Virus genome (UHGV): UHGV-1999812
Strand: one strand, 5' to 3'
From: a virus
DNA: 8,976 nt
Within the stretch, counting starts at the first letter, position 1, and each line of letters starts with the position of its first letter. Shown here piece after piece: positions 2,255 through 8,976 of the stretch. The notes under the pieces were generated by a model. The model saw only the letters and a list, made by a program, of their open reading frames with translations, did not search any database and was not told the origin of the DNA. A program made the position numbers and the translations under genes.

Positions 2255-2784
2255 TAAATTCCCATATGTGAAATATAAAAGCCACCAGCGCAGAAAATAA
2301 AACGCCTCACGTTATGCAAAACGGGTTAACCGTCGTGATGCCTTGCCGCATTCAATTAACGGCAGGTAAAAAATACCCGCAATGCAATAACACTACGGGC
2401 CATCAACGGAATATAAGGAGTTAACCGATGTGTATTGTATACAGTCGTGTGTATATTGCCACAGGTAACAGGCATCCGCGCCAAATACCCGCCAGAGAAA
2501 ATCAGTTGATCGCCAGTATCAAAAATGGCTATGATTCCCGCGCACCTCATAAAACGGGTGTCGGGATTGGAACCCCGCTGGAGATAAAGGCGATACAGAC
2601 GCCGAACGCGTCTTTTTTTGTATCGGCGCACACGCACACCTTATCAATGGTGGGCTGTATGGGGCTGACTTCGGTCAGGCTGGTTTCCTTTATCGCCAGT
2701 AGTTCCAACTCCGTGCAGTCCACCGCCAGCGAGATTGGAACCTCCAGCGGTGGGTATATCCCAACGATAAAGGAGGCTGCCATC

Positions 2785-2961
2785 ATGGCTACTACCCCTG
2801 CCCTCGTACATTCTCAAACTGCCTTTATCTGGCGCTTTATCATCTTTGGCGCGTCAGAATCCCAAATCATCCACGTAACCGCCTGGACGGAACGCGAAGC
2901 GCGTAACCGTTGCCCGTCCGGTTGTGTCGCTGTATTCGCCGCCCGTATTCGTCAGGGGTGA
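2785..2961 (+). CDS. Icd-like small protein (host cell division inhibitor Icd family), copy 1
   Basis: AAGGAGG (2770-2776) sits 8 nt before ATG 2785. The 58-aa product MATTPALVHSQTAFIWRFIIFGASESQIIHVTAWTEREARNR... has the F-x-WRF and T-x-x-EAR motifs I associate with Icd-like proteins, and ordinary codon usage. The in-frame ORF extends upstream to ATG 2428 (also with an AAGGAG RBS), but that extension has four ATA and three AGG/AGA codons and looks low-complexity, so I prefer the short start; the true start is uncertain. Confidence 0.55.
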   Translation: MATTPALVHSQTAFIWRFIIFGASESQIIHVTAWTEREARNRCPSGCVAVFAARIRQG

Positions 2962-3258
2962 GTCATGCTTAAAAACATGTTGATCGCCTCTTCTTTCGGG
3001 CTGTATGATGCCGGAGTCGTCCACATGGCGACCGGGTTTGACAGCCTGAATACTACAGCGGACAGCCGCTTACATTCCGATATGCGGTTTTTTTGTGTCC
3101 GTAAGCCTACCCATACCCGCATTATGGCGGGGCGTAACGGGGGAGCCTTTGCGCTCGCTGGTTCCTGTAGTGCCAGTCTGTCAACCCTGTTACGTCTCGC
3201 CACCATGTTTGACAGCGTAGTAGCGAGACTCCTTAATTTCACTACAGGAGCCTTTCAC

Positions 3259-3429
3259 ATGGCTGTATTCGCACGCCCTTACTTTGTCTGGCGCTTTATG
3301 CAGTGCCACCACAGCAACATCGATGTATTCACCGTTACCGCTGCCACTGAGCACGAAGCACGCGCACAACTTCCGCACACCCATCTGATTTTTGTCACCC
3401 TTATTCGTGAGGGGGTGAGTCATGCGTGA
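3259..3429 (+). CDS. Icd-like small protein, tandem paralogue (copy 2)
   Basis: AGGAG (3246-3250) 8 nt before ATG 3259. The product MAVFARPYFVWRFMQCHHSNIDVFTVTAATEHEARAQLPHTHLIFVTLIREGVSHA aligns with copy 1 over FxWRF ... VTA-TE-EAR ... IR-G. The in-frame ORF extends to ATG 2965; start uncertain. Its stop overlaps the next gene's start (GGGGGTGAGTCATGCGTGA). Confidence 0.5.
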   Translation: MAVFARPYFVWRFMQCHHSNIDVFTVTAATEHEARAQLPHTHLIFVTLIREGVSHA

Positions 3430-3736
3430 TGTGTGTAACACCAGAATACTTGAACAACTGGTTACAACCATAAAAACAGCTGACGCACGGGAAGCGAGAG
3501 CGATGTTTGATGATGCTGACTTCTACGCCCGCAAATTGCTTGAAGGGCTGGCTATCACAGGGCGCTTACTTTCTGGCATGAGTGACAGCATTGACCCTGA
3601 CATGGACGAACTGCGCAGCCTGGGCGATTCCATCGCTGTTACGGCTGAACTTGTGGCCGGATTCAGTGAGGTTGTGGAGGTGTACAACTGGCGTTGTCGT
3701 AACGGAGATATCAGTGCTGATTATCGCCATTCGTGA
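3422..3736 (+). CDS. Hypothetical protein (104 aa)
   Basis: ORF whose ATG is embedded in GGGGGTGAGTCATG and overlaps the upstream stop, suggesting translational coupling. Acidic, helical-looking sequence with ordinary codon usage. No family recognised. Confidence 0.55.
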   Translation: MRDVCNTRILEQLVTTIKTADAREARAMFDDADFYARKLLEGLAITGRLLSGMSDSIDPDMDELRSLGDSIAVTAELVAGFSEVVEVYNWRCRNGDISADYRHS

Positions 3737-3809: not shown

Positions 3810-4109
3810 ATGAACATGAAAAAAACTGGCTTAACTGCCAGCGGCAAGCCTCGCCCTGAATTTAAGCGCGGTGATATTTACCGCGACCAGTACGGCGGCA
3901 CGGTAATGATTAAGGGCGTGGCGGGGCGGTGCGTCACCTACCGCCGTAAAGGCTACGAATATGACTGCGTGATGCCTGTTTATCAGTTTTCCCGTGATTT
4001 TTCTCTGGTGCAGGCGGTACCGCGTAACGTGCCCACCAGCAACGTAAAGGCACTGGCAAAAATACAGAAGATGAAAAAGATGATTAACGCATTCAGGGGC
4101 AAGAAATGA
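3810..4109 (+). CDS. Hypothetical small basic protein (99 aa)
   Basis: AAGGA 6 nt before ATG 3810. Its stop TGA 4107-4109 overlaps ATG 4106 of the helicase gene (ATGA coupling). Lys/Arg-rich. No family recognised. Confidence 0.6.
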   Translation: MNMKKTGLTASGKPRPEFKRGDIYRDQYGGTVMIKGVAGRCVTYRRKGYEYDCVMPVYQFSRDFSLVQAVPRNVPTSNVKALAKIQKMKKMINAFRGKK

Positions 4110-5503
4110 AAAGCGCACCGAACTTAAAAAAACAGCCTTACGACAAAATGACCGAGGTCATTATTTTTGCGGGTAGTGATGCCTGGGCACACGCGAAGCA
4201 GTGGCAGGAGCAGGAGGGCCGACTTGCTGGCGATAATGTGCCACCTGTATGGCTTGGGGAGCAGCAACTGGCAGAACTGGCAGACACGAAAATCATTGAC
4301 GAGGGGCGCTATTGCGTCCGGCTGTACAAAGCAGGCCATATCAGACCATCAAATATTAATGCCATCGCGCAAAAACTGGCAGCGGCAGGCGTACAGGATG
4401 CGAATTATTACCCCGATGGGATGCACAGCCAGAAGCGGGAGAACTGGCGCGAATATCTGGAACGGGAGCGCGGGGAAAAGCAGGAAGAAAAAGGCCACCA
4501 GCGCAAAACAAAGCTACCGATGAGCGTTGGTTCTGCCGGATACGATACACAACTTGATTACGTGGTAAAGGGGATTATTCCGGCAGTATCGCTGTGCAGC
4601 ATATACGGGGCGAGCGGTTCCTATAAATCGTTCCTTGCGGGTTCGTGGGCGTGTCACGTTTCCACGGGCCGCCAGTGGGGAGGCCGCAGGGTGGCGCATG
4701 GCGCTGTTCTCTATGTGGTTGGTGAAGGCGGTATCGGCGTTCCGCGTCGTGTAAAAGCCTGGGAGGTTGTGCACGGTGAGCAGGTGAAAAATCTGTATCT
4801 GGTAAACCGCCCCATCTTTCCGGCTGCCCCGCTTGATGTTGATGAAATGGTTATCGCTGCCCGCCAGGTGGAACGGGAAACGGGTAAACCTGTACGCATG
4901 ATTATTCTGGATACGCTGGCGCGTTGCTTTGGTGGGAATGATGAAAATGATTCCCGTGATATGGGGGCATTTATCCGTGGGTGTGACGAGCTTAAACGGC
5001 GCACAGGGGCCACGGTGCTGGTGGTTCACCATTCCGGCAAGGATGAGACGAAAGGCGCGCGCGGTTCCAGTGCATTTCGTGCTTCGCTGGATGCTGAATA
5101 CCGGATACGCAGGGAGGACGCAGGAAGCGAAGCGCTGGTTATCTCATGTACCAAAATGAAGGACGCGGAGGAACTCAAAGAAGCCGCATATGACTTACGC
5201 GTGGTGGAGCTTTTTACCGACGCTGACGGGGAGTTAATTACGTCGCTGGTGGTGGTGGATAAGCCGCGGCATCCCGTTGAACCTGAGCGCATCGAGGAGG
5301 CAGGGAACAAGACGGAAAACCATACCGCGCTATGGGGGTGCATACGTTCACGCACACAGAACGGCGACAAGTGCACGATCCCGCTGTTACGTGATGACAT
5401 GAAACGGCTTGGGTATGACGTGAAAAACATGCGGCGATGGTTAGCAAAACTGGAGAAAGACGACGTTATCTATATCGACGGTGATGATGTAGGCCCACTG
5501 TAA
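4106..5503 (+). CDS. RepA/DnaB-like P-loop replicative helicase (RecA-fold ATPase) with N-terminal domain of unknown function
   Basis: 465 aa. Walker A-like SIYGASGSYKSFLA, Walker B-like VRMIILDTLARCFGG (hhhhD), and VLVVHHSGKDETKGARGSSAF resembling the sensor/arginine-finger region of RepA-type helicases. Followed immediately by an iteron cluster. Confidence 0.85.
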   Translation: MKSAPNLKKQPYDKMTEVIIFAGSDAWAHAKQWQEQEGRLAGDNVPPVWLGEQQLAELADTKIIDEGRYCVRLYKAGHIRPSNINAIAQKLAAAGVQDANYYPDGMHSQKRENWREYLERERGEKQEEKGHQRKTKLPMSVGSAGYDTQLDYVVKGIIPAVSLCSIYGASGSYKSFLAGSWACHVSTGRQWGGRRVAHGAVLYVVGEGGIGVPRRVKAWEVVHGEQVKNLYLVNRPIFPAAPLDVDEMVIAARQVERETGKPVRMIILDTLARCFGGNDENDSRDMGAFIRGCDELKRRTGATVLVVHHSGKDETKGARGSSAFRASLDAEYRIRREDAGSEALVISCTKMKDAEELKEAAYDLRVVELFTDADGELITSLVVVDKPRHPVEPERIEEAGNKTENHTALWGCIRSRTQNGDKCTIPLLRDDMKRLGYDVKNMRRWLAKLEKDDVIYIDGDDVGPL

Positions 5504-7154: not shown

Positions 7155-7289
7155 CCACAGATACCAGCAGCAACCGTTATATTTGCGCCACTATCGCAAA
7201 AAATCCCCTTTCAGGGCATCACGGACGCCACAAAACACCAAAACGCATCAGAGAGCGAATCAGGCGCTTTAATGATGATTTGTTTTTTT

Positions 7290-7358
7290 GTGAAAGAAGG
7301 TGAAAGAAGGTGATTTTTGTGAAATTAAGCGAAATCACGTGAAATCAGGTGAAATAAT
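7290..7358. repeat. Seven 10-bp-phased GTGAAA direct repeats (protein-binding array or curved DNA)
   Basis: gTGAAAgaag (7290-7299), gTGAAAgaag (7300-7309), gTGAtttttg, tGAAAttaag, cGAAAtcac, gtGAAAtcag, gtGAAAtaat: the GAAA cores fall at 7292, 7302, (7312), 7321, 7331, 7341, 7351, one helical turn apart. Contains the palindrome TCACGTGA (7335-7342). Lies between the Mor-like gene and the RNA array. Confidence 0.6.
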
Positions 7359-7395
7359 GATACCCGTTCATCTGGTGCTACCAGACGAAACAGAC

Positions 7396-7436: not shown

Positions 7437-7517
7437 TATGGTGTACTCTTAATCGGTAAAGCGGCATAAACCCTAACGGGCCATATGTTTATGTGGGTTC
7501 GACCCCCGCCACCAACA
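7437..7517 (+). ncRNA. tRNA-like structured RNA, unit 1 of 3
   Basis: T-arm GTGGG (7493-7497) / loop TTCGACC / CCCGC (7505-7509), with a U·G at the second pair; acceptor-like 3' strand CACCAAC (7510-7516) then unpaired A; D-arm-like TCTT / AATCGGTA / AAGC. The 5' acceptor strand is degenerate (5 of 7 pairs). No encoded CCA. Confidence 0.4.
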
Positions 7518-7540
7518 GCCAACTACCTTATCGCTTTTTT

Positions 7541-7631
7541 GCTGGTGTACTCTTAATCGGTAAAGCGGCACCCGCTTGTATAGCTTCCAGAAAGCGGGAT
7601 GTTTATGTGGGTTCGACCCCCACCACCAGCA
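7541..7631 (+). ncRNA. tRNA-like structured RNA, unit 2 of 3
   Basis: Acceptor-like helix GCTGGTG (7541-7547) with CACCAGC (7624-7630) and unpaired A7631; T-arm GTGGG (7607-7611) / TTCGACC / CCCAC (7619-7623); central 7-bp hairpin CCCGCTT (7571-7577) / AAGCGGG (7592-7598) with a 14-nt loop in the anticodon-arm position. Confidence 0.45.
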
Positions 7632-7654
7632 GCCAACAACCTCATCGCTTTTTT

Positions 7655-7736
7655 GCTGGTGTACGCTCAACGGGTAGAGTCGGTGCCAGCCTGTACAGGC
7701 TGATCATGTATGCGGGTTCGACCCCCGCCACCAGCA
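7655..7736 (+). ncRNA. tRNA-like structured RNA, unit 3 of 3
   Basis: Acceptor GCTGGTG (7655-7661) / CACCAGC (7729-7735) with unpaired A7736; D-arm GCTC (7665-7668) / AACGGGTA / GAGT (7677-7680); central hairpin CAGCC (7687-7691) / TGTACA / GGCTG (7698-7702); T-arm GCGGG (7712-7716) / TTCGACC / CCCGC (7724-7728). Non-canonical for a tRNA: 3-nt linker after the acceptor strand, 6-nt central loop, no CCA. Confidence 0.45.
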
Positions 7737-7965
7737 CGCCAAAAGCACAATTGCGCCATTTCTAAACCCACTTTAAAGCCACATAAAAACGGCTTTCGTA
7801 TCCCGTTTTATTGAGCACTCACGAAAAATGTGTACATACGCGTGTACATATACAAATTAACCCAACCCAAAGAACCGCATAATAAAAGCAATTAACGCAC
7901 ATACTAAACATTCAGATTCAATATTGAGTAACTCGTAACACTAATTCTTACTTTTCAGCCTTCAC

Positions 7966-8151: not shown

Positions 8152-8976
8152 ATGAACGAACATCATCAACCTTTTGAAGAAATACGGCATTATGGCACTG
8201 AAGGGCAAGAATTTTGGTCAGCTAGAGAATTGGCACCGTTACTGGATTATCGGGACTGGCGCAATTTTCAAAAGGTACTGGCCCGCGCGACTCAAGCGTG
8301 CGAAGCCAGCAATCAAGCTGCATCTGACCATTTCGTTGAAACCACCAAAATGGTTGTATTAGGTTCAGGGGCTCAACGAGAACTTGAAGATGTTCATCTC
8401 TCCCGCTATGCCTGTTACCTGGTAGTACAAAACGGCGACCCTGCGAAACCGGTCATTGCGGCAGGGCAGACTTATTTTGCTATCCAGACCCGACGGCAGG
8501 AGCTTGCTGACGATGAAGCATTTAAGCAACTTCGTGAAGACGAAAAGCGTCTGTTTCTGAGAAATGAGTTGAAAGAACATAACAAACAATTGGTTGAGGC
8601 AGCACAGCAAGCTGGGGTAGCGACAGCTACTGATTTCGCCATATTTCAGAATCATGGTTACCAGGGGCTGTATGGTGGATTAGATCAGAAAGCCATCCAC
8701 CAACTGAAGGGGCTGAAAAAGAGTCAGAAGATCCTGGATCATATGGGTTCAACAGAACTGGCGGCTAATCTCTTTCGAGCTACCCAAACAGAAGAAAAAC
8801 TCAAGCGGGATGGCGTGAATTCAAAACAGCAAGCTAATACCACACACTTTGACGTGGGTAGCAAGGTGAGGCAAACCATTCAGGAACTTGGCGGAACCAT
8901 GCCTGAGGAGTTGCCGACCCCGCAGGTCAGCATCAAGCAGTTGGAAAACAGTGTAAAAATTACAGAGAAGAAATAG
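8152..8976 (+). CDS. dinD: DNA damage-inducible protein D (DinD)
   Basis: 274-aa product beginning MNEHHQPFEEIRHYGTEGQEFWSARELAPLL, which I recognise as E. coli DinD. GGAG (8142-8145) lies 6 nt before ATG 8152; the ORF-track start at 8140 adds four residues (MEWA) and overlaps that RBS, so 8152 is preferred. LexA box upstream. Stop TAG at 8974-8976. Confidence 0.9.
   Translation: MNEHHQPFEEIRHYGTEGQEFWSARELAPLLDYRDWRNFQKVLARATQACEASNQAASDHFVETTKMVVLGSGAQRELEDVHLSRYACYLVVQNGDPAKPVIAAGQTYFAIQTRRQELADDEAFKQLREDEKRLFLRNELKEHNKQLVEAAQQAGVATATDFAIFQNHGYQGLYGGLDQKAIHQLKGLKKSQKILDHMGSTELAANLFRATQTEEKLKRDGVNSKQQANTTHFDVGSKVRQTIQELGGTMPEELPTPQVSIKQLENSVKITEKK

Follow-up and report, generated by a model that had tools for sequence, protein, structure and literature searches.

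The window analyzed here is a stretch of 8,976 nucleotides (nt) from UHGV virus genome UHGV-1999812 and is part of an Escherichia coli integrative island of the P4-like or phage-inducible chromosomal island (PICI)-like kind. Between positions 2428 and 3429 it carries two modules with the same layout: a sigma-70-like promoter, an a1/b1 element with a terminator, a C4 RNA, the sites a2 and b2, and then an Icd-like open reading frame (ORF) of 56–58 amino acids (aa). To judge from the sequence, these are very probably two complete RNA immunity cassettes of the type known from phage P1 immI and from P4, placed head to tail in the early (replication) operon. The parts of module 1 are as follows.

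2415–2420, + strand: Shine-Dalgarno AAGGAG, 7 nt before ATG 2428 of eta-like ORF 1 (read from the sequence)
2428–2961, + strand: eta-like long ORF 1, 177 aa; spans the isrK-like element, C4-1 and the targets, and ends as Icd-1
2506–2535, + strand: promoter-like site TTGATC-N18-TATGAT (consensus scan; aligns with P1 promoter P1c4/P51b)
2542–2618, + strand: isrK/seqA-type element 1 (Rfam RF01394, 63.8 bits, threshold 50)
2567–2573, + strand: a1, TTGGAAC (complementarity map)
2583–2590, + strand: b1, GATAAAGG (complementarity map)
2597–2613, + strand: intrinsic terminator stem, then T-run (terminator scan)
2643–2730, + strand: C4 antisense RNA 1 (Rfam RF01695, 77.6 bits, E = 2.6e-14)
2649–2727, + strand: predicted mature C4-1 RNA (homology with the 77-nt P1 C4)
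2686–2695, + strand: C4-1 b′ loop
2702–2708, + strand: C4-1 a′ bulge, GUUCCAA
2735–2776, + strand: target region 1 (exact complementarity to C4-1)
2735–2741, + strand: a2, TTGGAAC
2765–2774, + strand: b2, CGATAAAGGA; overlaps the Shine-Dalgarno AAGGAGG (2770–2776) of Icd-1
2785–2961, + strand: Icd/Kil-like ORF 1, 58 aa (NF033153, 60.1 bits)

Module 2 contains the corresponding parts.

2965–3429, + strand: eta-like long ORF 2, 154 aa; starts upstream of the module-2 promoter (2980) and ends as Icd-2
2980–3009, + strand: promoter-like site TTGATC-N18-TATGAT (consensus scan; −35 aligns with the P1c4 −35)
3003–3052, + strand: c4-a1b1 (RF03163) match, 29.3 bits, below gathering 46.7 (permissive scan)
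3016–3094, + strand: isrK/c4-a1b1-type element 2 (isrK 32.3 bits, below gathering 50)
3038–3044, + strand: a1, TTGACAG (aligns with annotated P1 a1)
3052–3058, + strand: b1, ACTACAG (aligns with annotated P1 b1)
T-run 3090–3096, + strand: hairpin and T-run in element 2
3120–3207, + strand: C4 antisense RNA 2 (Rfam RF01695, 72.3 bits, E = 5.4e-13)
3126–3204, + strand: predicted mature C4-2 RNA (P1 C4 homology)
3163–3172, + strand: C4-2 b′ loop
3178–3184, + strand: C4-2 a′ bulge, CUGUCAA, identical to P1 a′
3209–3249, + strand: target region 2 (exact complementarity to C4-2)
3209–3215, + strand: a2, TTGACAG
3240–3249, + strand: b2, CACTACAGGA; overlaps the Shine-Dalgarno GGAG (3246–3249) of Icd-2
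3259–3429, + strand: Icd/Kil-like ORF 2, 56 aa (NF033153, 47.7 bits)

The Rfam gathering scores are 45 bits for C4 (RF01695), 50 bits for isrK (RF01394) and 46.7 bits for c4-a1b1 (RF03163). Both C4 matches are full-length, covering model positions 1–87 of 87 on the plus strand, with one in each leader, and the isrK model begins 7 nt past the −10 hexamer in each module. The original prediction, made from the sequence alone, had suspected c4/CI-like antisense RNAs, together with their targets, in the leaders but had located none by eye. The Rfam scan of the leaders bears this out, with C4 at 77.6 and 72.3 bits, well above gathering and on the predicted strand, and isrK at 63.8 bits; the target sites are complementary to the RNAs.

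Minimum free energy folds of 2649–2727 and 3126–3204 show a long basal stem that encloses two hairpins; b′ occupies the loop of the second hairpin, and a′ follows it as a single strand. The folding energies are −41.7 kcal/mol for C4-1 (z = −5.9 versus shuffles) and −44.9 kcal/mol for C4-2 (z = −5.75). The a′ and b′ segments are exact complements, over 7–10 nt, of sites on both sides of each C4, at the expected offsets. The calculated duplex energy is −30.6 kcal/mol for C4-1 with target region 1, compared with −15 to −20 kcal/mol for the non-cognate pairs, and −31.2 kcal/mol for C4-2 with target region 2; cognate duplexes lie at about −31 to −35 kcal/mol, whereas non-cognate pairs lie at −15 to −24 kcal/mol. 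Folding also indicates that the Shine-Dalgarno sequences here can be sequestered in local hairpins. Hints of C4 processing are found in the GG at the predicted 5′ end, in the CCACC/CCGCC at the 3′ end and in the homology to P1 C4. Processing to a C4 RNA of ~79 nt by RNase P, a step described in a passage of PMC5320573 that cites Hartmann et al. 1995, and repression in trans are predicted.

The repeat GATTGGAACC, which had been noted near 2573 and 2734, is present with small coordinate shifts at 2565 and 2733 and holds the a1 and a2 sites of C4-1; the inverted pair and the other motifs pointed out with it are there as well (CCGCTGGAG at 2575, CTCCAGCGG at 2742, TGGGTATATCCCA at 2751). The 9-nt inverted pair (2575–2583 and 2742–2750) joins the a1 flank to the a2 flank, and past each a2 lies a 7-mer (2747–2753 and 3223–3229) that complements the 3′ strand of the basal stem of C4. 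Before processing, the transcript might fold in other ways through the inverted pair and the 7-mers, as at the Gifsy-1 isrK locus.

The pairing of loops and sites was examined by covariation. C4-bearing loci were gathered from IMG/VR with a conserved-core pattern, a covariance model was built, and 124 loci were searched. A search of one-genome-per-species contigs with the Icd alignment yielded a single locus, and cross-species sampling was instead drawn from IMG/VR and E. coli genomes. The covariation alignment holds 52 modules, including those of P1, a P1-like phage, a Shiga toxin (Stx) phage and P4. For a1:a′, 99.4% of the cells are paired, with 64 double-sided changes and a score of 0.62 (0.19 when shuffled). 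The a′:a2 pairing is seen in 92.3% of the cells (0.56 versus 0.19), and b′:b2 in 77%, despite loop-length register problems (0.48 versus 0.19). For each of the three pairings, 0 of 500 shuffles scored as high, and slid registers all scored far below the true register. These sequence data strongly support pairing between the loops and the sites across this family as a whole; expression of the window copy is a separate matter.

The diversity counts cover the first 100 IMG/VR loci, the window and the E. coli relatives. This set contains 41 distinct C4 sequences and 71 distinct modules, in which 13 types of a′ and 25 of b′ make up 33 combinations. When representatives of the combinations were compared, 32 of the 33 matched their own a1 and a2 and all 33 their own b2, while foreign targets were matched in 0 of 1056 cases for a2 and 4 of 1056 for b2. 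The window modules themselves differ in a′ (GUUCCAA in module 1 versus CUGUCAA in module 2). With recognition sequences that differ between the cassettes, neither C4 is expected to lock any cassette but its own. The exact specificities of the window are rare, occurring in 7 and 15 of 5,426 complete E. coli genomes, and none of 50,697 phage records has the exact a′ plus b′ combination of C4-1 or C4-2, the best match being phage D6 at 88%. In E. coli STEC2018-607 (NZ_CP075697.1), the exact C4-2 recognition core occurs at two loci, at ~918.8 kb and 3,438 kb, so one cell can harbor the same specificity twice.

The analogy to P1 and P4, which the original prediction had raised, holds feature by feature. 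The P1 record annotates the promoter P1c4 (P51b), a1, b1, a 77-nt C4 RNA, a2, b2, icd and ant. Module 2 is ~80% identical to the P1 c4 region, and the −35, a1, b1, C4 and a2 of P1 align to it; b2 and the icd start of module 2 were placed by complementarity, at a point where the P1 alignment is out of register. Both have a′ CUGUCAA and a1/a2 TTGACAG, and P1 and the window have in common a b2 that lies over the icd Shine-Dalgarno and an Icd of family NF033153. The b′ of C4-2 is unlike that of P1 (CCUGUAGUG in the window versus UCACUAAC in P1), and full cross-immunity with P1 is therefore not expected. Between P1 and P7, specificity shifts by matched changes in loop and target, as it does here. 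In P1 immI the Ant antirepressor follows icd, whereas orf104, the gene coupled to Icd-2 in the window, has no Ant match. P1 is also a plasmid prophage with one cassette, while the window represents a small integrative island with tandem cassettes.

The P4 immunity region is ordered PLE, seqA, cI/CI RNA, seqC, kil nested in eta, epsilon and, further on, alpha. In P4 (NC_001609), Rfam places isrK at 8692–8615 and C4, the CI RNA, at 8507–8420, so that the order isrK, C4, Icd-like is that of the window; IsrK corresponds to seqA and C4 to CI (PMC3632133, PMC4825925). The old P4 "cI" ORF matches Pfam Phage_ASH and then an Icd-like domain, as window ORF 1 does. Both elements nest the RNA gene in a long ORF sharing the reading frame of the small kil/icd ORF, and both have an alpA/vis-type gene on the upstream side and replication genes on the downstream side. 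P4 epsilon, which encodes the helper derepression protein, overlaps the end of the eta/kil ORF by 8 nt, and orf104 overlaps Icd-2 by 8 nt. P4 immunity works by premature, Rho-dependent termination of transcription (timm); the termination signal visible in the window is an intrinsic terminator-like hairpin in the isrK-like elements. The two differ in that P4 has one cassette, against two in the window and three in the relative L002 (E. coli strain 48), and in that the replication protein of P4 is the alpha primase, whereas the window encodes a RepA-like AAA_25 helicase. Unlike in P4, the eta-like ORF 1 of the window is not directly coupled to alpA, a gap of 174 nt lying between them, and none of sid, delta and psu of P4 was seen in the window.

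The Salmonella Gifsy-1 locus, isrK–orf45 (STnc1160)–anrP, is laid out in a similar way: the terminator of isrK can be read through, there is a processed RNA of C4 type, and translation of the small ORF is coupled to that of the downstream effector (PMC4825925). It differs from the window in having a single cassette, an antirepressor-like payload protein and an overlap between the small ORF and the C4-like RNA; the short IsrK was shown experimentally to activate (PMC4825925). For PICIs, passages of PMC10111431 report isrK/C4 hits in several Gram-negative PICIs, in helper-embedded PICIs (the Bro-zone "immunity RNAs") and inside Phage_ASH-type genes. The Gram-negative PICIs portrayed there resemble the window in carrying int, alpA, a Bro/Ash zone, a primase/helicase and SSB; tandem cassettes, differing specificities and ORF chaining are not described in those passages. 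No description of serial cassettes with different addresses that are chained by overlapping ORFs was found in the literature searched. The mechanism is a known one, that of P1 immI and P4 immunity, and the serial, differently addressed, ORF-chained arrangement is a variant of it.

Both leaders are open in the icd frame, as the original prediction had observed, and the rare codons that it noted in the first copy are more frequent there. The open stretch runs for 119 codons from ATG 2428 and 98 codons from ATG 2965, while the other two frames have 4–8 stops each; in mononucleotide shuffles, such openness has a chance of p = 0.004 for leader 1 and p = 0.019 for leader 2. The rare-codon fraction is 0.084 in leader 1, 0.051 in leader 2 and 0 in both icd ORFs. 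ATG 2428 lies upstream of the module-1 promoter (2506) and has a good Shine-Dalgarno sequence (2415–2420), and ATG 2965 lies 3 nt past the Icd-1 stop, where relatives have an 8-nt overlap. Overlapping stop/start signals link the ORFs into a chain that leads on to orf104 and the replication genes. Of 24 distinct module-2-type variants, 23 have a long ORF that extends without interruption from the junction ATG to the Icd stop, and in the 24th it exceeds the extracted sequence. In some open variants a 1-nt deletion upstream of C4 is offset by a 1-nt insertion in the b′ loop, so that ~35 codons of the peptide are changed. Leader substitutions outside the RNA elements fall at rates of 0.055/0.057/0.042 by codon position, with no third-position excess, and the Icd-2 ORF shows a coding-like third-position excess (0.070/0.085/0.154). 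The leader frame stays open, and the peptide is not conserved as a protein.

Pfam Phage_ASH matches residues 35–129 of ORF 1 (50.5 bits); the module-2 leader gave no Phage_ASH match. Along with Phage_ASH, several PHROG "transcriptional regulator" families match the translated isrK–C4 stretch of leader 1. RefSeq labels the region as an "ash family" pseudogene and a 154-aa "Icd-like protein", PGAP calls these ORFs, and no C4 or isrK RNA features are annotated in the RefSeq E. coli records inspected. In the Stx phage P13374, an annotated regulator coding sequence starts within the C4 RNA (position 2620 of locus L127, with C4 at 2616–2703).

The original prediction assumed that translation from ATG 2428 or 2965 would make the leaders coding and thereby count against an RNA role. 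This premise is invalid because the corresponding P4 region, eta with its nested kil, is both RNA gene and ORF, as passages of PMC10111431 describe. According to those passages, CI lies inside eta and kil is nested in eta, with Kil being a truncated product. The immunity transcript, which is terminated and processed, comes from a constitutive promoter inside eta; translation of full-length eta depends solely on the upstream late promoter and prevents termination (PMC10111431).

The two Icd-like genes were described as paralogous, and the data agree: at 2785–2961 and 3259–3429, both score above the 25-bit cut-off of NCBIfam NF033153 ("host cell division inhibitor Icd-like"), and they are 40% identical to one another. 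With the same model, P1 Icd scores 52.6 bits and the C-terminus of P4 eta/kil 73.9 bits. Icd-1 and Icd-2 are accordingly predicted, by family membership, to be division inhibitors. The two genes end differently: CAGGGGTGAGTCATGC at 2953 has four G before the stop TGA (2959–2961) of Icd-1, and GAGGGGGTGAGTCATGC at 3409, at the end of Icd-2, has five. The suggestion that an added G would recreate the C-terminus ...GVSHA is also correct (Icd-1 of the five-G relative L002 ends ...QGVSHA). The run at 2955–2958 thus has four G where relatives have five, and Icd-1 is thereby 4 C-terminal residues shorter. Five G are found in 8 of 8 closest complete genomes and in 3 fetched loci, the four-G allele occurs in 0 of 129 fetched loci and 0 of 5,426 complete genomes, and in other islands the junction sequence differs. 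The four-G run is not a regular feature of the junction; it is a −1 allele seen in this sequence alone, whether through a private mutation or through a homopolymer error. Phase variation of the G-run was considered and rejected as unsupported, the close relatives all having five G and none four. With four G, 3 nt separate the Icd-1 stop from ATG 2965, and coupling might still be possible.

The modules are colinear over ~470 nt and have identical promoter hexamers and an identical 3′ junction (GGGGTGAGTCATGC); in a DNA alignment of the two, the mean column identity is 73%. Module 1 is closest to cassettes that precede Rha-type regulators in Stx-converting phages (~83% identity), and module 2 to the c4 region of phages P1 and D6 (80–82%). 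Of the tandem duplication that had been proposed, the two paralogous, colinear modules stand, and a recent duplication in situ is rejected, because each cassette is closer to cassettes of different phages than to its partner.

Tandem C4 cassettes, 457–479 nt apart, were found at 14 sampled loci, with three cassettes in E. coli strain 48 (L002), and the a′/b′ pairs differ between cassettes in all 14 arrays. At 12 more loci, an Icd gene with no detectable C4 is followed by a module-2-type cassette; at one locus (L059) the first Icd is preceded by a divergently oriented small ORF instead. The module-2-type leader is present in 142 of 5,426 complete E. coli genomes (~2.6%). Module 2 of the window equals L002 module 2 up to ~3325, with one difference at 3315, and equals L002 module 3 from 3326 on. 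This pattern of matches implies that copy number in the arrays changes by unequal crossing-over inside icd. Between modules 2 and 3 of L002, 20 of the 26 leader differences fall in six specificity sites.

How such an array may work can be proposed by analogy with P1 and P4. The internal promoter of each cassette would be constitutive, and its transcript would be cut to a C4 RNA of ~79 nt, with RNase P acting at the 5′ end. The a′ bulge and b′ loop of the C4 would bind a2/b2, and also a1/b1. Pairing would block Icd translation and trigger premature termination, leaving the downstream genes silent, and the short RNA bearing a1/b1 would be a competitor or a partner of C4. Each cassette has its own promoter and would therefore need its own lock. 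Ribosomes from ATG 2428, or from ATG 2965 through coupling to the Icd-1 stop, would traverse the RNA gene and the target sites. We infer that such read-through would bypass both locks, with expression reaching orf104 and the replication genes, and because each long ORF begins at the preceding Icd stop codon, all locks would be overridden at once. Arrays would gain and lose cassettes via unequal crossing-over inside icd, and this, together with concerted switching at the six sites, would change the addresses. The array would then be a serial combinatorial lock, made of autonomous addressed units that are jointly overridden and whose addresses switch, giving an expandable satellite immunity "barcode". 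We put this fuller model forward tentatively, as a possibility that we consider somewhat less likely than not.

The cassette reading would give a concrete function to ~1.1 kb that RefSeq labels only as an "ash family" pseudogene and over-long "Icd-like" proteins, and it would place the P1/P4 antisense switch, in multiple copies with different addresses, across an E. coli island family. The 33 matched RNA/target combinations are a natural set for studying and engineering orthogonal antisense regulators. If the bypass chain is true, it explains why leaders are open in frame without a conserved protein, and it suggests a way for a satellite to silence several constitutive promoters yet fire its early operon from one upstream signal. 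If the "barcode" is true, it decides which rival satellites and phages the island silences or is silenced by.

Several other explanations were weighed. The long ORFs of 177 and 154 aa could be ordinary protein genes in which the RNA matches are incidental, and both frames are indeed open, Phage_ASH and PHROG regulator families match leader 1, and PGAP calls the ORFs. However, the C4 matches exceed the threshold by 27–33 bits, covariation ties together three separate sites, there is no third-position excess, the amino-acid frame shifts among variants while the RNA elements stay fixed, and the family matches cover exactly the isrK–C4 stretch; we give this explanation almost no credence. That the array is an inert relic, with one or both cassettes being decaying recombination remnants that regulate nothing, is suggested by the private −1 frameshift of Icd-1, the mosaic nature of the island family and the frameshifted Icd-like genes of some relatives (L004). 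We regard it as improbable. Both cassettes retain every regulatory part in intact form, and these parts are complementary to one another; the frameshift shortens Icd-1 by no more than 4 C-terminal residues, with 3 nt between its stop and the ATG that follows, and the module-2-type leader, carried by 142 of 5,426 genomes, has its variation concentrated in the six specificity sites.

The reading as two RNA immunity cassettes is compatible with a view in which the short isrK-like RNA is the main regulator, acting as an activator as in Gifsy-1, and C4 is secondary. In Gifsy-1, the read-through transcript is bound in trans by the short IsrK, whereupon the ribosome-binding site of a small ORF becomes accessible and the coupled gene is turned on (PMC4825925), a mechanism with experimental support. 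The 63.8-bit isrK match of module 1 with its properly placed terminator fits this view, as do the possible Shine-Dalgarno hairpins and the 9-nt inverted pair (2575, 2742) that ties the isrK-like region to the a2–b2 spacer. The covariation, on the other hand, tracks the C4 loops and not an isrK-to-ORF helix, the isrK part of module 2 is weak, and the authors of the Gifsy-1 study point out that the C4-like STnc1160 RNA may work in the manner of P4 (PMC4825925), so we consider a leading role for the short RNA unlikely. Slightly better placed, although still on the unlikely side, is the equally compatible view that the extra cassettes serve mainly in conflict between elements, as superinfection immunity of the P1 versus P7 kind. 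An idea of this sort was raised for Salmonella prophages (PMC3632133), and it is in keeping with hypervariable specificity sites on a near-invariant scaffold, with the occurrence of the same scaffolds in Stx and P1-like phages and with the identity of C4-2 a′ and P1 a′. Against it stand the lack of any exact a′ plus b′ match in the 50,697 phage records, the rarity of the specificities (7 and 15 of 5,426 genomes) and the genome with the C4-2 specificity twice, by which exclusion is not absolute.

Some observations weigh against the cassette reading and its extensions. Expression, processing and repression of the cassettes are predictions from sequence, and the putative promoters agree with the consensus at 9 of 12 positions. 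In module 2 the terminator hairpin is weak, and the isrK and a1b1 matches, at 32.3 and 29.3 bits, lie below Rfam gathering; with c4-a1b1, almost identical copies of this module in other genomes score 46.8 bits, against the threshold of 46.7. The private −1 frameshift in Icd-1 may signal decay of cassette 1 or an assembly error. By the codon-position data the leader peptides are not conserved as proteins, and the case for translational bypass therefore comes from the openness of the frame and the P4 precedent. The gene after the cassettes is neither an Ant-type antirepressor, as in P1, nor an epsilon homolog, as in P4, so the target of the locks is known by position only. Finally, the 14 arrays include close relatives, and with 33 combinations random pairs would seldom match, which makes the finding that cassettes within an array always differ weak evidence of selection.

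On the minus strand, upstream of and within the start of module 1, further signals are seen. A terminator-like hairpin (2303–2323) lies between alpA and the cassettes, with no obvious gene on that strand. A promoter-like site GTGGCA-N17-TACAAT (2462–2434) is followed downstream by a strong terminator hairpin and T-run (2400–2375). The minus-strand promoter and terminator (2362–2462) would yield an RNA of ~60 nt (fold z = −2.8), which is predicted to be antisense to the Shine-Dalgarno and ATG (2415–2430) of eta-like ORF 1; a weak Rfam isrL match at this site is confined to the terminator. Such an RNA could be a further control on the bypass ORF.

The remaining genes of the island surround the cassettes as follows.

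58–1011: integrase
between the integrase and the AlpA-type regulator: 298-aa ORF
2051–2254: AlpA-type regulator
3422–3736, + strand: orf104, first gene after both cassettes (from the ORF list)
downstream of orf104: DUF4222 protein
4106–5503: RepA-like AAA_25 helicase
downstream of the RepA-like helicase: SSB, then PerC-like and Mor-like regulators

The island order is therefore int, alpA, cassette 1, cassette 2, orf104, DUF4222, RepA-like helicase, SSB. The same 1.18-kb region is present in 8 complete E. coli genomes at 96–99% identity, and a tRNA-Ile gene adjoins the island in both relatives whose surroundings were inspected. The start of orf104 overlaps the Icd-2 stop by 8 nt, and the gene sits where P4 has epsilon; it has no match to the epsilon family PF25738, and searches of Pfam, NCBIfam and PHROG returned 0 matches, including none to ANT, Bro, KilA-N or Rha. 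None of its 49 homologs has a name; they form an Enterobacterales family with one Plesiomonas hit. The AlphaFold model has three helices (pLDDT 87), and its comparison with the PDB gave nothing below E = 1.

Two repeat regions were also noticed in the window. At 7275–7362, downstream of the Mor-like gene, a run of ~10-nt repeats (GTGAAAGAAG / GTGAAATCA) resembles replication-origin iterons. At 7439–7749 there are three direct repeats of 105–114 nt, each with an end like a tRNA 3′ half (GGGTTCGACCCCC..CCACCA), one repeat unit more than in the relative L001. PGAP annotates a "tRNA-OTHER" and a tRNA-Tyr at the homologous place in L001, and neither ARAGORN nor Rfam finds a tRNA in the window. Homology to L001 stops near 7750, which is probably the right end of the island.

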